This document shows, one piece after another, positions 24,417-34,832 of a stretch of DNA of 52,740 nucleotides. This stretch comes from a virus (lineage: Duplodnaviria > Caudoviricetes): positions 1 through 52,740 of the IMG/VR virus record IMGVR_UViG_3300031673_000065; one strand, written 5' to 3'. The notes below the pieces were generated by a model. It had not been told where the DNA came from and did no database searches. It saw nothing but the letters and a program-made list of their open reading frames with translations. Made by a program: the position numbers and the translations under genes. Every line of letters starts with the position of its first letter. Position 1 is the first letter of the stretch.

Positions 24417-24694
24417 CTGTTGACCTCAAATCAGTGTCCATGCACGGGAAGTTCAACCATTCCCGGGTGCGGGTGCTGTGGCGCGATGGCTTATTGCGCG
24501 CCTTTGGCGGCGTTGGGTTGTTGCTGGAACTGAAAACGGCAGAGCCTGTGAGGGTGAAGAAATCTATCAACCGCTGGATCGTCAGCACCGATCTTGGCCC
24601 GCTGATTTTGAAGGGCAAATGTATGACGTGTGGTGGGCCAAGATGGTGGCGGTTAATGCGGATGCCGGAGGATGAGTTGTGGGAAACTCCGTAG
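24413..24694 (+). CDS. Hypothetical protein
   Basis: ATGA-coupled to the previous gene; CMTC motif. Confidence 0.5.
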   Translation: MTVDLKSVSMHGKFNHSRVRVLWRDGLLRAFGGVGLLLELKTAEPVRVKKSINRWIVSTDLGPLILKGKCMTCGGPRWWRLMRMPEDELWETP

Positions 24695-26346
24695 CGCGCA
24701 AGTTAGAGGGCACCCCGCCAATCACGACCAATGATTGGCCGGTTGACGTGCTTTCCATTTTGGCCTGGCGGCAACAGCAAGTCATCCTTTTGAAGAATAG
24801 CCCTGCCTTGGTAAAAGGTGCCAAGGCATATTATGCAGAGAATCCTGTTGATTTCATCAACCACTGGTGCGACACATACGACCCGCGCAAGGCAGGCGGC
24901 GGGATGGCAAAAGGACCGTTTGTGTTGTTTAAGCGCCAGGAAGAGCTGGTTGATTTTCTGTTTGCCTGTTTACGCGCTGAAGAACCAGGTCTGATTGAGA
25001 AGTCTCGTGATATGGGCGCGACTTGGGTGTGTTCTGCCTTTTCGGTGTGGCTGTGGTTATTCTGGCCGGGTGCTGCCGTGGGCTGGGGTTCACGCAAGGA
25101 AATCCTGATTGATAAATTGGGGGATCCAGACAGCATCTTTGAGAAGATGAGAATGTTGATAATGGCACTTCCGAGTTTCTTTTGGCCGGTTGGGTTCAAG
25201 ATAAACGAACACATGTCTTATATGAAGTTTGTCAACCCGGAAACCGGCGCGACCATCACTGGCGAAGCGGGCGACAACATCGGCCGCGGCGGGCGTAAGT
25301 TGATTTATTTTAAAGATGAAAGTGCCCATTACGAACGTCCCGAGAAAATTGAAGCCTCACTGTCCGATAACACACGTGTTCAGATAGACCTGTCCTCGGT
25401 GAACGGGCTTGGGAATGTTTTCCATCGCAAACGTGAAGTCGGGGCCGACTGGCACGGCAAGATTGAACCAGGTCGCACACAGGTGTTTGTCTTGGATTGG
25501 CGCGACCATCCGGAAAAGAATCAAGCCTGGTACGATACCCGAAAGAAACGGGCAGAAGACGACGGTCTGTTGCACTTATTTGCACAAGAGGTTGAGCGCA
25601 ATTATAGTGCTGCGGTAGAAGGTGTTCTGATTCAACGGGAATGGGTGCAGGCTTCGATTGACGCTCATATCAAGTTGGGTCTCCAGGAGACCGGGCCATG
25701 GTCGTCGGCATTGGATGTTGCAGACACCGGCGGCGATACAAATGCACAGTCCCAGCGTCAAGGTGTGATATTACGTGAACTTGATGAATGGGGTGCGCGT
25801 GATCCGGCACAGACCGCCAGAAGAGCTATTGCTAATGTCGCTAACAGGGGTAAAATTGAACTTCAGTACGATTGTATCGGTGTTGGTGCAGGCGTCAAAG
25901 GTGAAGTCAATAACCTTGAAGATGCCGGCCGGTTGCCAAGAGGCGTTCGATTGATTCCTTGGAATGCAGGCGGCAAGGTATTGAAACCAAAGGGTCGGGT
26001 GATTGAGTATGATGCGGACAGCCCAACGAATGAGGACTTTTATACGAACCTGAAGGCACAAGGCTGGTGGGAATTGCGCAACAGATTCTATCGTACCTGG
26101 CGTGCAGTGAATGAAGGCGCAACGTATGAACCGGATTCACTTATAAGCATTGACTCTCGGCTCAAAAGGCTTTGGCAACTGGAGAAGGAATTGTGTCAGG
26201 TTACAGCCAGCAAAGGCGCAAGGCTTAAACTGTTGATCGACAAAACACCGCCTGGCACTCGGTCTCCCAACTTGGCTGATGCGGTGATGATGGATTATTG
26301 GCCGATCACAAGTGGTTACGATTTAGAGGCTTTTATCAATGGATAA
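24679..26346 (+). CDS. terL: Terminase large subunit
   Basis: EKSRDMGAT Walker A region, FKDESAH Walker B, nuclease LDVAD, YDCIGVG, SPNLADA. Confidence 0.92.
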   Translation: MGNSVARKLEGTPPITTNDWPVDVLSILAWRQQQVILLKNSPALVKGAKAYYAENPVDFINHWCDTYDPRKAGGGMAKGPFVLFKRQEELVDFLFACLRAEEPGLIEKSRDMGATWVCSAFSVWLWLFWPGAAVGWGSRKEILIDKLGDPDSIFEKMRMLIMALPSFFWPVGFKINEHMSYMKFVNPETGATITGEAGDNIGRGGRKLIYFKDESAHYERPEKIEASLSDNTRVQIDLSSVNGLGNVFHRKREVGADWHGKIEPGRTQVFVLDWRDHPEKNQAWYDTRKKRAEDDGLLHLFAQEVERNYSAAVEGVLIQREWVQASIDAHIKLGLQETGPWSSALDVADTGGDTNAQSQRQGVILRELDEWGARDPAQTARRAIANVANRGKIELQYDCIGVGAGVKGEVNNLEDAGRLPRGVRLIPWNAGGKVLKPKGRVIEYDADSPTNEDFYTNLKAQGWWELRNRFYRTWRAVNEGATYEPDSLISIDSRLKRLWQLEKELCQVTASKGARLKLLIDKTPPGTRSPNLADAVMMDYWPITSGYDLEAFING

Positions 26347-27736
26347 CGTTTTGAAGCTAACCGTCGACTCATTCAAAAACTTTGTTGCAGGGCTTGGTAC
26401 GGATCGTGACAAACAGGTCGGTGGGGAATATGCGCTTCTTACGCTGACCGATCAGCAGTGGTCTGTTATCTATCGCACTTCCTGGATGGGCCGCAAGGTC
26501 GTTGACATCCCGGCTGAAGACGCCACACGCAAGTGGCGGAATTGGCAAGCTGAAGAAGACCAGATCGAGGAAATTGAAGAAGAAGAGAAACGTTTGTTGG
26601 TGCCACAGAAGGTCAAACTGGCGCTACAACAAGCCAGACTGTTTGGGGGGTCTGGGATTTATTTCAGTATAACGGGGGACGACCCTGAGAAGCAGCTTGT
26701 ACTTGAGACGATCAAGAAAGGCTCTTTGGCCTTTGCCACCGTGCTGTCGCGCAGCATTTTGGTGCCGGGGCAGATTGAGCTTGATCCGATGGCAGAAGGC
26801 TACGGCAAGCCGCAATATTATGAAGTGAGTAGCACAGGTCAGGGCACTGTGCGAATTCACCCTTCGCGGCTTGCCATTTTTGTTGGCAACGAAGTTCTCA
26901 CGCCAGAAGAGATGATTGGGCGTTATCAAGGTTGGGGCGACAGCGTCTTGCAATCCGTTTATGAGGCTTTGCGCAATGCCGATTCAACAGCGTCCAATAT
27001 CGCTTCACTCGTCTATGAATCTAAAATTGACGTTCTACAGATTCCGAACCTGGCGGCTTTGATGGCGAACCCACGGCACCGGGAATTGTTAGAGCAGCGC
27101 GTTGCGTTGAGTGCCCAACTCAAAGGCAACAACGGAATGCTGATTATCGACGGTGAAGAAAAATACGAACAAAAGAGCTTCACCTTCTCAGGCCTGACAG
27201 ACATCAATTCACAAGCCATGCAAGCTGTATCAGGCGCAGCCGATATTCCCATCACACGCTTCTTGGGACAATCGCCTGGCGGCTTGAACGCAACCGGGGA
27301 AGGTGATCTCAAAAACTATTACGATTCTGTCGCTAGCAAGCAAGCACTTGGAATGACCCCGGCGCTGTTCAATCTTGACGAGGCGCTGATACGCTCTGCG
27401 CTGGGTGACCGGCCGGAAGACATCTGGTATGAATGGGCTTCCTTATGGCAGATGAGTGATGAGCAGCAATCAAGGATCAGTAAAGAAACCGCAGACACTA
27501 TTGGGGCGCTGGTTGCCGCGGGAATATTCCCGGAAGCCGAGTTGGGTGAAGCCGCTGCAAACCTGTTGGTGGAACGCGGCGTGTTCCCGGCGTTTGATAT
27601 TGATGCCGCTATGTTGGAAGAAGTTGCTGAAGAGAAAGCGGCTGTCGCGGAAGCTGAATCTGCTGCGGCAAAGGAACATGACATTGCGCTGAAGTCGACA
27701 GCGCCACAGCCTAAGGAGAAAGACAGTGGAAATTAA
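26339..27736 (+). CDS. Portal protein (DUF1073 family)
   Basis: Follows TerL; VVDIPAEDATRKW, ARLFGG, IHPSR, WGDSVLQ, GAADIPITRFLGQSPGGLNATGEGD. Confidence 0.9.
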   Translation: MDNVLKLTVDSFKNFVAGLGTDRDKQVGGEYALLTLTDQQWSVIYRTSWMGRKVVDIPAEDATRKWRNWQAEEDQIEEIEEEEKRLLVPQKVKLALQQARLFGGSGIYFSITGDDPEKQLVLETIKKGSLAFATVLSRSILVPGQIELDPMAEGYGKPQYYEVSSTGQGTVRIHPSRLAIFVGNEVLTPEEMIGRYQGWGDSVLQSVYEALRNADSTASNIASLVYESKIDVLQIPNLAALMANPRHRELLEQRVALSAQLKGNNGMLIIDGEEKYEQKSFTFSGLTDINSQAMQAVSGAADIPITRFLGQSPGGLNATGEGDLKNYYDSVASKQALGMTPALFNLDEALIRSALGDRPEDIWYEWASLWQMSDEQQSRISKETADTIGALVAAGIFPEAELGEAAANLLVERGVFPAFDIDAAMLEEVAEEKAAVAEAESAAAKEHDIALKSTAPQPKEKDSGN

Positions 27737-30242
27737 CAAGGTGCGTCACGCCATCGTTGACGAGTACGACCCCAACCAGCCGCGTGCTCCGAAAGGTGAC
27801 CCAGACGGCGGGAAGTGGACGAGTGAAGGTGGCGGGTCAAAACGTGAAGGTGGGTTCGTGGTTCCAGGTTTGCCGGGCGTGTTTTACAGCCAAGAAGAAT
27901 ACAAGGCTGCTAGTGAAAAACAGGAAGCGGAGTTAAAAAAGACCACGTTCAAGACAAGCAAATTTCGGGACGACGACAACGGTGAGAAAGTTACGGTAGA
28001 AAGCTGGAAGGCTGATAACCGTGGACTGTACCGTGTCAAAATCATAAGCCCGAAGTATGGTGAGTACAGCGGTCTCCACCGTGAAGACTCCAGAGGCGAC
28101 GCTGAGTATAAAGCGTGGTTTGTTTGGAATTCAACAAAGACGGGAAAGATCAGTTGGGGCGACAGCGCCATCGTTGACGAGTACGACCCCAACCAGCCGC
28201 GCAAGTCTAAAGGCGATCCCGACGGTGGGAAGTGGACGAAGTCGGGCGCTGGTGGTGAGAAAGGGGAAGGCAGCACGGAGATTAGCGCTGTCTTGAAAAA
28301 GAGAGCGAAGATGTACAATACATCTGCCAAGATTATAGAGTTGAGCGGCGACCGCTTTGGGAAACGCGGACTGTACCTGAACAACCGGGACAACCGGCGT
28401 TCCACAACTTTCACACTTCCCTTTTCAGAAGCGAAGGCGACAGCATGGATCGTGAAGAACGGCCGGAAGTATGGCGACAGCTCAACCGTTGACGAGTACA
28501 ACCCCAACCAACCCCGTGCTCCCAAAGGGGATCCGGACGGCGGCCAGTGGACGAGTGAAGGTGGTAGTGGTTCTTCTGAGAAACCGATCGGTAAACCTAC
28601 AGAAAAACAAAAATTAGATATTCAGGCCATCCGCCAACAGATCGAAGCTCTGGTCGCTGTAAATGCATTCGCCAAAAATCCTGATATCACAAAGACAATT
28701 AATGAATACCGGAAAAGCATTGACCAAATAAAGGCATCATATGGCGACAGCTCAACCGTTGATGAGTACAACCCCAACCAACCCCGTGCTCCCAAAGGCG
28801 ATCCCGATGGCGGCCAGTGGACGAGTGAAGGCGGTTCTTCCGGTGATCCTGACAGACCTGCCAGCGTCAAAGAGGAACATCTCAGGTGGCTGAATTCAAT
28901 TCGTGAGTCAGGGCAAATAAACATGTTTGGCGCGGGGGAATACCTTCGGCAAGCCTATCCTGAATTGAACAAGAACCAGGCTCGTGAGGTTCTCAGCTAT
29001 TGGATGAAATCGTTTGGTGGTCGGCAAAGAGCACTTGGATATAAAGAGGCGGGAGGCGAACTCAAAGCGCTAGGAATTAAGCCTGTGGGAGGTGAACGTA
29101 GAGCACTTGGCTATCGTTATCCGGGTGGCGACAGCGCGATGATGATGTTTGACGCTGTTACCGTTGATGCCTCTCGTGCCAGGTGGACCAAGGACGGCTA
29201 TGTGGTGGCGGAAGCTTCTGTCGCACGCACGGGCGTCCAGTTATACACCGCGGCTGAGTTGGGGATGGACGGTGATCCCGACAAAGTGATCCGGGTCTAC
29301 AGGCCACCGGAAGAAGTCTTCTCCAAAGACGCAATGGCGTCCTACGCGCATCGACCTGTTACGGTTGATCACCCTGGCGTGATGGTTGATGCGTCGAACT
29401 GGAAACAATACGCCAAAGGGCAGACCGGCGACGAAGTTGTGCGGGATGGCGATTTTGTCCGGGTGCCGCTAATGTTGCTGGACGCTGACGCTATTTCAGA
29501 ATGGAAGAATGGGCGGCGTGAATTGTCAATGGGTTACACAATGGACCTCAAGATTGCTGATGGGGTCACTGATGACGGCCAGAAGTACGATGCCGTGCAA
29601 ACGAATTTACGTATGAACCATCTAGCGCTTGTTTCCCGCGCTAGGGGTGGTTCTCAATTGAGACTGGGAGACACTAAACTAGAGGACAGAAGTATGGATG
29701 TGAAGCTGACCACGATTACGGTGGACGGGCTTTCCGTTGAAACTACTGATGCCGGTGTGCAGGCCATTTTCAAGCTCAATAAGGAATTGGTCGACACACG
29801 TAAGGTAGCAGAAGATTCAGCGGTTGCTCATGCTGCAACCCTTGCCGCCAAGGACAAGGAACTTGCAACAAAAGATGCCGAGATTGATCTGCTGAAGGGC
29901 AAAGTGCTTTCAGATGCAAACTTGGACAAGATGGTCAAGGAACGGGCTGATCTGATTTCAGTAGCCAAACAGGTTGCTGATAAGGATTACACCGGCATGG
30001 CCGCCAATGACATTCGCAAAGCCGCGGTTGTTGCTCAACTTGGGCAAGCAGCGGTTGATGGGAAGTCGGAAGAGTACATCACGGCTCGGTTTGATATCCT
30101 GGCTGAAGATGCAAACCAGGATCCAGTGCGCAAAGTTCTTCGCACCGGTGACGCAAACAGGACGACAACGGTTGATCAGGCGCACGCAGGCCTGGTTCAG
30201 AACCTTGAGAATGCCTGGAAACAGACGAAGGAGGTGGCGTAA
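27726..30242 (+). CDS. Head maturation polyprotein: four tag+cargo modules, DUF2213 protease and C-terminal scaffold
   Basis: DUF2213 motifs from ~29139 (ARTGVQLY, VYRPPEEVF, PVTVDHP, ELSMGY, NHLALV..ARGG); coiled-coil scaffold at C-terminus; N-terminal 470 aa has four repeats. Confidence 0.88.
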   Translation: MEINKVRHAIVDEYDPNQPRAPKGDPDGGKWTSEGGGSKREGGFVVPGLPGVFYSQEEYKAASEKQEAELKKTTFKTSKFRDDDNGEKVTVESWKADNRGLYRVKIISPKYGEYSGLHREDSRGDAEYKAWFVWNSTKTGKISWGDSAIVDEYDPNQPRKSKGDPDGGKWTKSGAGGEKGEGSTEISAVLKKRAKMYNTSAKIIELSGDRFGKRGLYLNNRDNRRSTTFTLPFSEAKATAWIVKNGRKYGDSSTVDEYNPNQPRAPKGDPDGGQWTSEGGSGSSEKPIGKPTEKQKLDIQAIRQQIEALVAVNAFAKNPDITKTINEYRKSIDQIKASYGDSSTVDEYNPNQPRAPKGDPDGGQWTSEGGSSGDPDRPASVKEEHLRWLNSIRESGQINMFGAGEYLRQAYPELNKNQAREVLSYWMKSFGGRQRALGYKEAGGELKALGIKPVGGERRALGYRYPGGDSAMMMFDAVTVDASRARWTKDGYVVAEASVARTGVQLYTAAELGMDGDPDKVIRVYRPPEEVFSKDAMASYAHRPVTVDHPGVMVDASNWKQYAKGQTGDEVVRDGDFVRVPLMLLDADAISEWKNGRRELSMGYTMDLKIADGVTDDGQKYDAVQTNLRMNHLALVSRARGGSQLRLGDTKLEDRSMDVKLTTITVDGLSVETTDAGVQAIFKLNKELVDTRKVAEDSAVAHAATLAAKDKELATKDAEIDLLKGKVLSDANLDKMVKERADLISVAKQVADKDYTGMAANDIRKAAVVAQLGQAAVDGKSEEYITARFDILAEDANQDPVRKVLRTGDANRTTTVDQAHAGLVQNLENAWKQTKEVA
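27750..28835 (+). repeat. Four dispersed ~80-95 bp repeats encoding DEY(D/N)PNQPRxxKGDPDGG(K/Q)WT
   Basis: Copies at ~27750, ~28158, ~28470 and ~28740. Confidence 0.95.
29694..30242 (+). CDS. Putative internally initiated scaffold protein
   Basis: In-frame ATG at 29694 with GAGGA 7 nt upstream, right after the protease domain. Confidence 0.55.
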   Translation: MDVKLTTITVDGLSVETTDAGVQAIFKLNKELVDTRKVAEDSAVAHAATLAAKDKELATKDAEIDLLKGKVLSDANLDKMVKERADLISVAKQVADKDYTGMAANDIRKAAVVAQLGQAAVDGKSEEYITARFDILAEDANQDPVRKVLRTGDANRTTTVDQAHAGLVQNLENAWKQTKEVA

Positions 30243-30676
30243 TGCCTACTTTACAAAGCACTTATGCTGACAATATTGGCGCAGCTTATAAAGGTGCACT
30301 CGCTAATTTGGAGCCGAAGGTTATCATTTCACGCACCGTGGAAGATTCCGGCGGAATAGACTTCGGCCTTGCGGTTATGCAGGGCACTGAAGACATGGGT
30401 TGCGTGGTCAGCGACGCCAGCGCGTTCCTCGGTGTTACCGTGCGCGATCAGTCGGTTGATCCGACAGCGCCAGATACGTTTGAATACCAGGCTGAAGCCC
30501 GCATCATCACGAAAGGTGTGATTTGGGTGGCAAATTCTGGCGGTGTTGCGGCGGGTGATCCTGTTGTAGCGCTGGCAGACGGCGCATTGGGAACGGGTTC
30601 TAGCCCGTTAGTGGAAGGTGCGCGGTGGGATACCACGGCAACCACCGGCAATCTTGCGCAACTGCGTCTGGGCTAA
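30242..30676 (+). CDS. Head decoration/cement protein
   Basis: Between scaffold and capsid; FGLAV, KGVIWV, VAAGDPV. Confidence 0.75.
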   Translation: MPTLQSTYADNIGAAYKGALANLEPKVIISRTVEDSGGIDFGLAVMQGTEDMGCVVSDASAFLGVTVRDQSVDPTAPDTFEYQAEARIITKGVIWVANSGGVAAGDPVVALADGALGTGSSPLVEGARWDTTATTGNLAQLRLG

Positions 30677-32940: not shown

Positions 32941-33165
32941 ATGAATGACGCGTTGGAACCGATCGAAGTTGAGGATGTGACACGGGTGGAATTGAAAGTG
33001 CGCAATATAAATGGAGAAGGTGTTTTGTTCACCGAGGATGGCCAGATGATTGGTCACCAGATTGCGCACATGGGGCATTATTATTACATGGGGCACGGCA
33101 AAGAACGGGTGAAGATGTATCGCGCCACGTTCCGGGTTGACACGATGAAATCCGATGTGCCCTGA
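32941..33165 (+). CDS. Hypothetical protein
   Basis: 74-aa ORF exactly filling the gap. Confidence 0.5.
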   Translation: MNDALEPIEVEDVTRVELKVRNINGEGVLFTEDGQMIGHQIAHMGHYYYMGHGKERVKMYRATFRVDTMKSDVP

Positions 33166-34832
33166 TGCCTGTAACCCGTTCACAGATGGATGCTTTGCTA
33201 AAACGGCTGGAGGGGCCAGTCAAGCAGGCATTCGAGAAAGCGATGAAGACTGCCCAAGGTCGGGCAAGTATAGAAGCAATGATCGCGGCTATTATATCTG
33301 GCGATGAAAACGCCATTTGGGCCGCGGCAGGAATGCGTGATGGGATGTGGACGAATCTAACAGAGACAATTCGCAGTGCTTATGTGCAAAGCGGTGCTTT
33401 CTATGTTGGCGCGACAATTCCAAAGAACATTGGGATGGAATTCAGCATCACCAATCCCCGCGCTGAAGCCTGGCTGCGGAATATTTCGTCCCAGTTAATC
33501 ACCGGTGATGATAGAGGAAGTTTGTTTGCTGGCCAGCGCGAAGCGATTCAGGTAATGCTACAAAACAGCATGGCGCAAGGTATAAATCCGCGCACCACGG
33601 CGCTGGACATCATTGGGCGCATCGGCGAGAATGGCAAACGTTCTGGCGGTGTGATTGGGCTGACAGGGCAACAGGCCGATTATGTTTTGAATATGGCTGA
33701 CGACCTGGTTGAATTCAATGAGCGCTATTTTGATCGTGCTTTGAGGGATAAGCGTTTTGATAAAATGGTTCGCAAGTCATTTGACAGTGGCGTGCCGTTA
33801 CCGGAAGCTGTGCGCAACCGGATCGTTCAGCGTTATGAGAATCGCATGCTCAAGCACCGCGGCGATAACATTGCGCGCACAGAAACGCTGAAGGCGATCA
33901 ATGCCGCGAATGATGCCGCGATGCACCAGGTGGTTGATGAAGGTTTAGCGCCAGCAAACGCCATCACGAAAATATGGCGACATAGTTTTAGTAAGAACGA
34001 ACGTCCTGGGCACCTGGCAATGAGTGGTGAAGTGAAGAAGCTGGGTGAAGCATTCACTAACCCTGTGACAAAATTCTCGCTACAGTACCCTGGCGACAGT
34101 GACGAGGCCAGTGAGGTTATCAATTGCCGCTGCTACATCGAAAACAAGATTGACTTCTTCGCGGTTGAAGTGCCCGCAACTGCTGAACAGGCATCTGCGT
34201 ACGTGCCTGCGTTTAGACTTGGCAGCACCAGTTCAGAGACAGTGGATCAAATCTTTGACGCTCTCGGAGAAATACCAGGAGTGAAAGAACGATTGGCTAC
34301 TATTTCAGATTTCGTTTCTCAAAGAAAAATTGGGACTGTATTTTTCGACGAAATAAAATCAATTGAAGAAAATACAAAACAAGTTGTTTTATGGACAGAA
34401 AAATATTTGAACAATTCTCCTTTGCGAATGGAACTTCTTGACATTCCAAAAAATGTTGGAGGGTTAACCGATCCAGGCTGGGATTTCATAATAGTTCAAT
34501 CTAAAGGATCGATCATTGAGGGTCTTGCCCAAACTTTACGCGATGTCAAGAGAAACTTTAATTTCAAACAAGACAACGCGGGAGGATATACGCCCCTGTC
34601 TGCGTGGTTACATGAACTAGGGCATCAGATTCATTTCAAGGCGACTGTCCCACGCAAATATCTTGATTTTACTGGTTCCGGAATGAAATCTCTCACAGTT
34701 TATGGAGAAACGAATTCTGAAGAATTTTTCGCAGAACATTTTGTTCTTTGGGCAATGGATAGAAAAGGACTCGTAAAAATCCGTCCAGAAATCGCGGAAA
34801 TGATTGACGTAATAGTGGGTAATTTGAAATGA
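33165..34832 (+). CDS. MuF-type minor head protein with C-terminal zincin metallopeptidase domain
   Basis: MuF motifs IARTE, R..H..M.G, YPGD, INCRC; extension with HELGH and YGETNSEEFFAE. Confidence 0.82.
   Translation: MPVTRSQMDALLKRLEGPVKQAFEKAMKTAQGRASIEAMIAAIISGDENAIWAAAGMRDGMWTNLTETIRSAYVQSGAFYVGATIPKNIGMEFSITNPRAEAWLRNISSQLITGDDRGSLFAGQREAIQVMLQNSMAQGINPRTTALDIIGRIGENGKRSGGVIGLTGQQADYVLNMADDLVEFNERYFDRALRDKRFDKMVRKSFDSGVPLPEAVRNRIVQRYENRMLKHRGDNIARTETLKAINAANDAAMHQVVDEGLAPANAITKIWRHSFSKNERPGHLAMSGEVKKLGEAFTNPVTKFSLQYPGDSDEASEVINCRCYIENKIDFFAVEVPATAEQASAYVPAFRLGSTSSETVDQIFDALGEIPGVKERLATISDFVSQRKIGTVFFDEIKSIEENTKQVVLWTEKYLNNSPLRMELLDIPKNVGGLTDPGWDFIIVQSKGSIIEGLAQTLRDVKRNFNFKQDNAGGYTPLSAWLHELGHQIHFKATVPRKYLDFTGSGMKSLTVYGETNSEEFFAEHFVLWAMDRKGLVKIRPEIAEMIDVIVGNLK

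Follow-up and report, generated by a model that had tools for sequence, protein, structure and literature searches.

A tagged cargo array on a DUF2213 scaffolding protease of a soil phage, a candidate set of proteins delivered from the phage head

Polyvalent proteins, in which several unrelated modules are joined in one chain encoded among the virion late genes, are thought to be packaged and delivered (Iyer et al. 2017, PMC5512222), and an assemblin-like peptidase, when one is present in them, is always C-terminal and probably processes the protein during assembly (PMC5512222). Here we analyze an open reading frame (ORF) of 838 codons at positions 27726-30242 (plus strand, as for all features below) of the linear IMG/VR virus record IMGVR_UViG_3300031673_000065, which derives from a soil phage, comprises 52,740 bases and is estimated to be 78% complete; the whole record is called the window. 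The ORF encodes four small domains (cargo), each headed by the same peptide tag and closed by a Gly-Asp-Ser (G-D-S) junction, and ends with a DUF2213 protease-like domain and a scaffold part. The protein is probably a head-interior polyvalent protein, in which four tag-headed small proteins ride on the N-terminus of a scaffolding prohead protease of the T1/PB1 type and are cut free and delivered. Like the described polyvalent proteins, it combines at least two distinct modules in one phage chain of the head module, and its tag is common to members with ADP-ribosyltransferase (ART), zeta toxin, topoisomerase IB, portal or MuF anchors. In contrast, its cargo cores match none of the recurrent effector families of that class (MPTase, ART, ParB, methylase, PBECR and others), and the link runs through the tag and the shared logic. 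A keyword check of the main text of PMC5512222 found neither DUF2213 nor a repeated tag or G-D-S junction. The new element is the tagged array on a DUF2213 scaffolding protease, whereas polyvalent, virion-delivered phage proteins are known.

Three other systems are close to this locus. The T-even proteins Ip1, Ip2 and Ip3 are small and variable, share an N-terminal signal, are packed into the head and injected, and each blocks host (type IV) restriction (PMC12373910). We regard them as the best functional analogue of the array, not as a group to which it belongs. They are encoded by separate genes, whereas the window has one polyprotein on a protease-scaffold. In addition, the signal of the T4 internal proteins is a short leader removed by the gp21 protease, whereas the tag in the window, which is presumably unlike the T4 leader in sequence, is proposed to stay on its cargo. 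MuF polymorphic toxins consist of a domain that anchors them in the virion and, behind it, effector domains that vary (Jamet et al. 2017, PMC5576092), and a keyword check of the text of that article found no linker or motif of the tag kind. Toxins fused to portal or MuF proteins resemble the array in combining an anchor with variable effectors, and many carry the same tag at the joint; they differ in that the anchor is N-terminal and the effector C-terminal, whereas in the window the order is reversed, the anchor is a scaffold-protease, and the MuF-like gene is separate and tagless. Finally, the proteases of T1-like phages (the Bas11/Bas13 protein, bioRxiv 10.1101/2023.05.21.541620) and of PB1-like phages (Pa193 gp24) share with the window protein the domain, the gene position and the C-terminal scaffold. 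They differ in the array: the nearest cultured and uncultured relatives are about 365-450 amino acids (aa) long and lack it.

Architecture of the array and its carrier

The initial annotation had described four modules, each made of a tag, a Gly/Ser linker, an unrelated core and a closing WGDS, YGDS, YGDS or GGDS, followed by DUF2213 from MMMFDA, and every one of these elements was confirmed in place. The tag core, VDEY(D/N)PNQPRxxKGDPDGG(K/Q)WT, occurs in four copies (tag 1, 27756-27821, aa 11-32; tag 2, 28173-28238, aa 150-171; tag 3, 28488-28553, aa 255-276; tag 4, 28758-28823, aa 345-366), each followed by a Gly/Ser-rich stretch, and only a 10-aa leader, MEINKVRHAI, stands ahead of tag 1. 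At the DNA level, the copies form a repeat of 96 nucleotides (nt) that is 73-95% identical to the reference copy, with spacings of 417, 315 and 270 nt, and the unit at 28740-28835, comprising junction 3 and tag 4, is 95% identical to the unit containing tag 3. A six-frame motif scan of the window returned 14 [NSTD]QPR matches with the full tag in these four only, and a profile search of the record found the same four and none further. Tags 1 and 4 differ at 9 synonymous and 2 non-synonymous codons, and the other differences between copies are likewise mainly at synonymous sites, suggesting that purifying selection keeps the tag peptide in each copy. No foreign island was seen in the GC content across the array.

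The four cores (105, 70, 55 and 97 aa as cut) are mutually unrelated, the best pairwise BLASTP match having an E-value of 9.8. No family was assigned to cargo 1 (27840-28154, aa 39-143), cargo 2 (28260-28469, aa 179-248) or cargo 3 (28575-28739, aa 284-338), and no significant one to the core of cargo 4 (28845-29021, aa 374-432); searches against Pfam, PHROGs and NCBIfam, even at loose thresholds, gave nothing significant for any of the four. A match of cargo 4 to DUF5049 (E 0.13) was not significant and was set aside. As cut, three of the cores are basic (isoelectric points (pI) 8.7, 10.3 and 9.0, the highest being that of cargo 2 over aa 179-252) and the cargo 4 core has a pI of 6.8. A feature search of the ESM Atlas with the cargo gave no usable match, and a structure search of the same resource gave TM values of 0.39-0.47 for cargo 1, with only cargo 4 resembling small free-standing phage proteins. 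The N-terminal 471 aa had no close relatives of the array in 50,697 cultured phage records by tblastn. The whole 838-residue protein (27726-30239) contains no cysteine.

The DUF2213 protease-like domain (29139-29672, aa 472-649) ends in LRLGD (Gly648-Asp649) and is followed by an acidic C-terminal scaffold part (29673-30239, aa 650-838), the counterpart of the portion of Pa193 gp24 found bound inside the capsid. Pfam DUF2213 (PF09979) matched aa 488-649 with an E-value of 2.5e-52 (177.7 bits, against a curated cut-off of 22), and PHROG 530, 'head maturation protease', matched aa 472-836 (E 1.8e-101); four PHROG families with that annotation matched the ORF. His549, Ser601 and Asn631-His632 (H78, S130 and N160-H161 of the domain) were invariant in all 40 aligned sequences. 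The domain was found in 1831 of the 50,697 cultured phage records, including T1-like phages of E. coli and Klebsiella and PB1-like phages of Pseudomonas, and in the nearest cultured relatives, Stenotrophomonas phage CUB19 and Acinetobacter phage Silvergun, the gene order is the same and the protein has ~370 aa and no extension. The DUF2213 profile aligned with chain G of PDB 9b40, the 'scaffolding protein' gp24 of Pa193, at an E-value of 1.1e-22, and the alignment runs into the scaffold part. In mature Pa193 virions, residues 286-326 of gp24 form a helix-turn-helix and sit as a pentamer on the inner side of the five-fold vertices, and the protein was detected by liquid chromatography-mass spectrometry (PMC11456595). 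The T1-like protein is described as an N-terminal protease (catalytic S121) with a C-terminal scaffold (bioRxiv 10.1101/2023.05.21.541620). By these matches, aa 472-838 form a member of the T1/PB1-type scaffolding prohead protease family, and the DUF2213 domain is likely to act as a protease. The earlier placement of the protein at the prohead protease position is borne out by the DUF2213 and PHROG 530 matches and by the location of the gene, with the portal gene before it and the cement and capsid genes after it, and the idea of an array on a head-interior protein agrees with the capsid-bound scaffold of its homologue gp24.

Other members of the family also carry N-terminal parts. ChaB, Acb1 (against the cyclic oligonucleotide-based antiphage signaling system, CBASS), NUDIX, zinc-ribbon and ParB-like parts were found on DUF2213 relatives, three of them with a tag-like motif, suggesting that the use of DUF2213 proteins as carriers is common in the family. 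The Acb1 domain PF23474 is fused without a tag to the DUF2213 N-terminus in P0041 (E 5.4e-39), in P0031 (E 5.1e-6 only) and, from precomputed data, in P0049. The scaffold part of a T1-like member was reported to set off type I CBASS (bioRxiv 10.1101/2023.05.21.541620); if it does so, the Acb1 fusion would join the antidote to the trigger.

The four modules are closed by G-D-S at aa 145-147 (junction 1, (W)GDS, 28158-28166, with the proposed cut after Asp146), aa 250-252 (junction 2, (Y)GDS, 28473-28481), aa 340-342 (junction 3, (Y)GDS, 28743-28751) and aa 468-470 (junction 4, (G)GDS, 29127-29135), the last with no tag behind it. The fourth G-D-S lies two residues ahead of three Met codons that mark the gene start of relatives (MMLFD...), and a cut there would restore a near-native protein. 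When the 13 residues ending on the first DUF2213-domain residue (12 upstream residues plus that residue) were inspected in the 47 relatives whose extension measures at least 30 aa, 39 contained D[SAGTH], as against 26% of the other 13-aa windows within the same extensions; since the pattern was picked after inspection of data from relatives that are not independent of one another, the enrichment is a hint, not a statistic. At the other end of the domain, the terminus LR(I/L)GD has a Gly-Asp conserved in at least 90% of sequences, beyond which they diverge into the scaffold part, and the protease would free itself from the scaffold at this place. In addition, three single contigs from sequencing runs X3 and X5 have, by hand translation, other sequence directly ahead of the same GDS at 28473, 29124 and 29127, the one at junction 2 (28473) coming from X3. 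These comparisons suggest that the G-D-S junctions are processing sites cut after Asp, in line with the cleavage that the initial annotation had predicted. We found no account of the cleavage specificity of a DUF2213-type protease in the literature. A second LRxGD(A) motif, with its Gly-Asp at aa 808-809, lies within the C-terminal scaffold part. Between cargo 4 and the protease (29028-29135) are three 12-aa repeats, (R/K)ALG(Y/I)xxxGG(E/D)x, of which the last ends in GGDS; each ends in Gly-Gly-acid and resembles a weaker copy of the junction.

The ORF is preceded by the genes for the large terminase (24679-26346) and the portal (PF06381, 26339-27736) and followed by that for the cement protein (30242-30676), 3' of which lie the genes for the major capsid protein (PF09950), an adaptor, a head-closure protein and a MuF-like protein; it thus has the portal gene on one side and those for the cement and major capsid proteins on the other. 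The MuF-like protein, a head morphogenesis protein of 555 aa, is encoded at 33165-34829. Its PHROG match stops at aa 337 and its Pfam Phage_Mu_F match at aa 324, and its C-terminal ~220 residues, which have neither a family nor a tag, may be a second, MuF-borne cargo.

Other cargo on near-identical backbones

Exact matches among the tag copies do not exceed 36 nt and are thus too short to mislead an assembler using ordinary reads. We compared further soil sequencing runs, X2, X3, X4 and X5; among the runs listed as holders, none is of RNA. Contigs of X2 and X3 tile 27300-29600 at 99-100% identity and even depth; they are short and break at the tags, and the repeats are not bridged. The protein cluster is recorded on three contigs. 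As far as can be told, the array is not an assembly artefact.

The cargo differs from one backbone to another. The 214-aa fragment P0117, which comes from another data set, likewise begins with MEINKVR and a tag, followed by a cargo that the window lacks; after this cargo come '...PDS', STVDEY with a second tag and, behind that tag, a homologue of cargo 1. Set against the window, the fragment fits a crossover inside a tag. Coverage in X4 and X5 has a depth of 10-14 at the flanks (portal end and DUF2213 part), which differ by a few percent, but of 0-3.4 at cargo 1 and 0 at cargo 2. Joints in these runs skip whole modules, for example from 27748 to 28166 (417 nt, exactly one unit), and loose ends leave the end of a tag and continue in frame into unrelated sequence; one such end resembles the linker of P0117. 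The array is therefore a cassette system, in which near-identical backbones carry other cargo between the same tags and GDS, and the variable cargo set of the initial annotation holds: the N-termini are not invariant, as judged from P0117 and from the depth and loose ends in X4 and X5. Contigs of X4 and X5 at 29057-29137 carry the repeat region with 4 differences, followed by a more diverged DUF2213 start (PTMLFDSVEA, hand translation), indicating that such arrays also sit on a second carrier allele.

We also compared 80 head loci from IMG/VR whose capsid proteins are 55-86% identical to that of the window; 73 have a DUF2213 gene, and in 70 its start is visible. The tag was found in none of the 80 loci in any frame, and the longest possible N-terminal extension among the 70 visible DUF2213 starts is 58 aa, suggesting that the array is young or recently gained.

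The tag beyond this phage

The initial annotation had proposed to trace the tag through phage proteomes with a hidden Markov model (HMM). A profile of the four tags, searched against 1.84 billion cluster representatives, matched 1364 proteins at E<=0.001 and 81 at E<=1e-10, with up to 11 copies per protein: the tag does occur in many proteins, and it is not special to the window phage. A Pfam scan covered 49 of the best 150 tag proteins and found ART-type domains in 16, zeta toxin in 5, topoisomerase IB in 3, Portal_Mu in 4, MuF in 5, ChaB in 2, no family in 20 and DUF2213 in none of the 49. A separate search with the N-terminal 471 aa of the window protein found no cargo homologues and 24 other proteins sharing the tag alone; these proteins come from phages, are large and bear ADP-ribosyltransferase, topoisomerase IB, zeta-toxin, Acb1/2H or other domains, in several cases behind a portal.

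Over 331 instances, the tag consensus is (V)xK(Y/F)(D/N/S)P(N/D/S)QPRxP(A/K)G(S/T)PxGG(Q/R)W followed by a Gly-rich stretch, and a shorter QPRDxxGRW form exists; the four window tags fit the motif (K)(Y/F)(D/N/S)PxQPRxPxGxPxGG(Q/R)W drawn from these instances. Among these instances, D precedes the invariant Pro in 54%, N in 26% and S in 15%. The first tag lies within 40 aa of the N-terminus in 41 of 137 tag proteins and a tag lies at the end in 7, with a median spacing of 246 residues, suggesting that tags lead modules rather than trail them.

Among 185,579 species genomes, the exact YDPNQPRxPxG form was found in 109 stretches; the 80 listed belong, by title, almost all to Alphaproteobacteria, mainly Hyphomicrobiales. 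The 84 motif ORFs in these 80 stretches comprise 5 portal fusions, 5 with a CdiA-CT RNase, 1 lysozyme, 1 DUF6883 and 72 with no Pfam family. Local HMMs, a small set applied to short windows, detected a head gene at 19 of the 109 bacterial tag loci (HK97-type portal at 13, S78 at 14 and PF06381 portal at 1). Since S78 proteases and HK97-type portals stand at some tag loci, the tag is not tied to the DUF2213 family, and it did not originate with the window phage. It appears instead to be a generic header of cargo modules, mostly in multi-enzyme 'polyvalent' phage proteins fused to a portal or MuF. Among the tagged genes of bacterial genomes are complete small ones that consist of a short N-terminal part, one tag and one domain. 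In many small tag-bearing proteins of Alphaproteobacteria (loci L088-L196; P0178, P0267, P0293, P0344, P0352 and P0360), a short helix-like E(V/T)KL...L(R/K) stretch stands just ahead of the tag, with one domain behind, in some cases HNH-like or RNase-like; the stretch may be a minimal anchor for free-standing cargo.

Other searches returned little. A peptide-pattern scan of viral contigs found no close relatives of the array, the DNA pattern for VDEY(D/N)P(D/N)QPR had no match in viral contigs and none in metagenome contigs, and alignment of the tag to viral contigs found one unrelated locus, L007. A tblastn search of phage records with one 30-aa tag gave a single weak match (E 6), and the low-complexity filter may hide others; against PHROGs, the tag had no match at E up to 10. 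We found no description of the tag in the literature, where the full-text matches listed for NQPR had no phage topic; another name or a place in supplements is possible.

Proposed function and its alternatives

We propose the following course of events. By comparison with the homologues, the C-terminal scaffold part would co-assemble with the capsid protein, so that the whole chain is built into the procapsid, where the DUF2213 domain (His549, Ser601 and His632) would cut each of the four G-D-S junctions behind its Asp and would also cut behind the LRLGD at its own end. The products would be a protease with a near-native N-terminus (SAMMMFD, compared with MMLFD in relatives) and four proteins of ~90-146 aa that keep the tag in front. 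These four would be retained in the filled head and exit together with the DNA, as the T4 internal proteins do, and the injected cargo could act early in the next cell, by the same analogy most likely against host defences. Since the C-terminal scaffold part alone would suffice for loading, the tag would not be needed for it here. The tag stands ahead of modules, occurs in proteins that are already anchored and would work in a lineage that gained it recently, suggesting a role that needs no co-adapted partner: it could be an element for processing, a leader for exit or a retention signal of a general kind, and a peptide that docks specifically to this capsid is less likely.

Alternatively, the tag itself might be the capsid-loading peptide, binding capsid, portal or scaffold as the T4 targeting sequence does, with the fusion to the protease being secondary. 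The initial annotation had taken the tag for such a targeting peptide. The leading position of tags in their modules, the small bacterial genes with a short N-terminal part, one tag and one domain, the mere 10 aa ahead of tag 1 and the purifying selection on the tag would all fit. Nevertheless, many tagged proteins are already attached to a portal (Portal_Mu, PF04860 or PF06381) or to MuF, where targeting is needless, and the motif is near-constant across phages with differing portal families and protease types. In general, the capsid proteins of such phages have little sequence in common. Head modules with capsid proteins 55-86% identical to that of the window are tagless, and no co-adapted docking site is therefore evident. 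A tag that is generic in at least 1364 clusters, often anchored by portal or MuF and absent from all 80 related loci, is hard to reconcile with a T4-like targeting peptide, given that the scaffold alone would suffice, and we consider this explanation unlikely, if the best placed of the alternatives.

The tag might also be a portable processing or exit element, either self-cleaving at (D/N/S)-Pro or serving as a leader through the portal and tail, and in addition a boundary for cassette recombination. The VENN motif in CdiA toxins is such a boundary, and self-cleavage at Asp-Pro and Asn-Pro bonds is known from other proteins. The predominance of D and N before the Pro is consistent with self-cleavage, portal-fused toxins such as those with a CdiA-CT RNase need release and have the tag as the sole conserved element at the joint, and the crossover inside a tag that fits P0117 and the window would agree with a recombination boundary. 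Operation in a lineage of recent gain likewise favours a function independent of a partner. On the other hand, Ser, which precedes the Pro in 15% of instances, does not fit the same chemistry, and a separate G-D-S at every junction would be superfluous if the tag cut itself. The differences between copies are synonymous, so that DNA identity for recombination is not what is conserved. This explanation is rather improbable.

To about the same degree we doubt that the array is not delivered at all. It could extend the scaffold or inner core and be shredded and then expelled or degraded at maturation, or it could stay tethered, with a role in structure or in condensing DNA. Many phages lose fragments of their scaffold once it has been cleaved, and the cores are small, three of the four are basic, and they have no enzyme signature and match no known effector family. 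However, close relatives assemble heads without the extension, and backbones that are nearly identical differ in their cargo, a behaviour typical of conflict genes rather than of structural parts. Elsewhere the same tag marks effectors, namely ADP-ribosyltransferases, zeta toxin, topoisomerase IB, Acb1 and RNase toxins.

The remaining alternative concerns the reading frame. The GTG start at 27726 has a Shine-Dalgarno (SD) sequence, AAGGAG (27713-27718), 7 nt upstream, and the frame it opens overlaps the portal stop codon (27734-27736). At the three ATG codons at 29139-29147, the site of the gene start in relatives, a weak GGTGG, 10 nt upstream, is the sole SD-like element; at this short start the relatives carry GAGGAG-type SDs, and the strong counterpart has been lost in the window. 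Translation from 27726, rather than only from about 29139 as the initial annotation had envisaged for the opposite case, is favoured by the strong SD, by the MEINKVR start shared with P0117 and by the loss of the strong SD at the internal start. It is very improbable that the long form is not made or is mis-assembled and that only the 367-aa protein from 29139 is real: the ancestral ATGs with their weak GGTGG are retained and the X2 and X3 contigs break at the tags, but a 471-codon open frame has a canonical SD and start, its tags are conserved as protein, P0117 has the same start and architecture in another data set, all parts are at even depth in two further samples with exact repeats of 36 nt at most, and the GAGGAG-type SDs of the short start are gone.

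Several points weigh against a delivered, protease-cut array, besides the post hoc choice of the Asp-small pattern. The cargo cores match no known family, so that a counter-defence role rests on analogy, and if the array is on every scaffold copy, the head must hold much extra protein. The internal ATG codons at 29139-29147 are still present, making a start there possible. The portal protein carries W-G-D-S, the residues of junction 1, at aa 199-202 (26933-26944), conserved in 33 aligned sequences with W199 invariant and G200, D201 and S202 at >=90% in a motif that is presumably buried; the GDS motif by itself cannot therefore define a cut site. Whether Pa193 gp24 is cut is left undecided by its authors (PMC11456595). 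Alignment of DUF2213 with 11 S78 domains by hhalign was weak (E 0.022, probability 2%), with the Ser motif aligning, compared with E 0.42 for the reversed control. DUF2213 may belong to the Pfam clan of SH (HK97/assemblin-like) serine proteases. Finally, 11 relatives (P0027-P0030, P0032-P0034, P0037-P0039 and P0043) have a true S78 domain directly ahead of DUF2213, and DUF2213 may therefore not be the working protease in them. In these tandems DUF2213 retains its His, Ser and His, giving two protease-like domains, either of which may be the active one.

Going beyond the head-interior polyvalent protein proposed above, a wider generalization is possible, which we offer tentatively and with more doubt than confidence. 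The tag and cut site together might be a portable 'load, cut and carry' unit, with the tag retaining, exporting or self-processing, so that any small protein placed behind the tag on any head-interior anchor would become injected cargo. Arrays would then be fast-swapping counter-defence arsenals, and G-D|S would be an Asp-specific cleavage rule for the widespread DUF2213 proteases.

Phage proteins that are injected with the DNA act before phage gene expression and are therefore prime tools of counter-defence, and to our knowledge few such proteins are known outside T4, P1 and N4. The locus is a compact natural case in which the carrier, the junctions and the cargo boundaries can be read from the sequence, and the natural variants that swap cargo on the same backbone provide a list of candidate anti-defence proteins. 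It also gives a testable cleavage rule, in which Gly-Asp precedes a small residue, for a protease family with members in 1831 of 50,697 cultured phage records. Lastly, it adds a further context for a widespread tag (1364 clusters), which, if understood, might serve to bring proteins of choice into phage heads.

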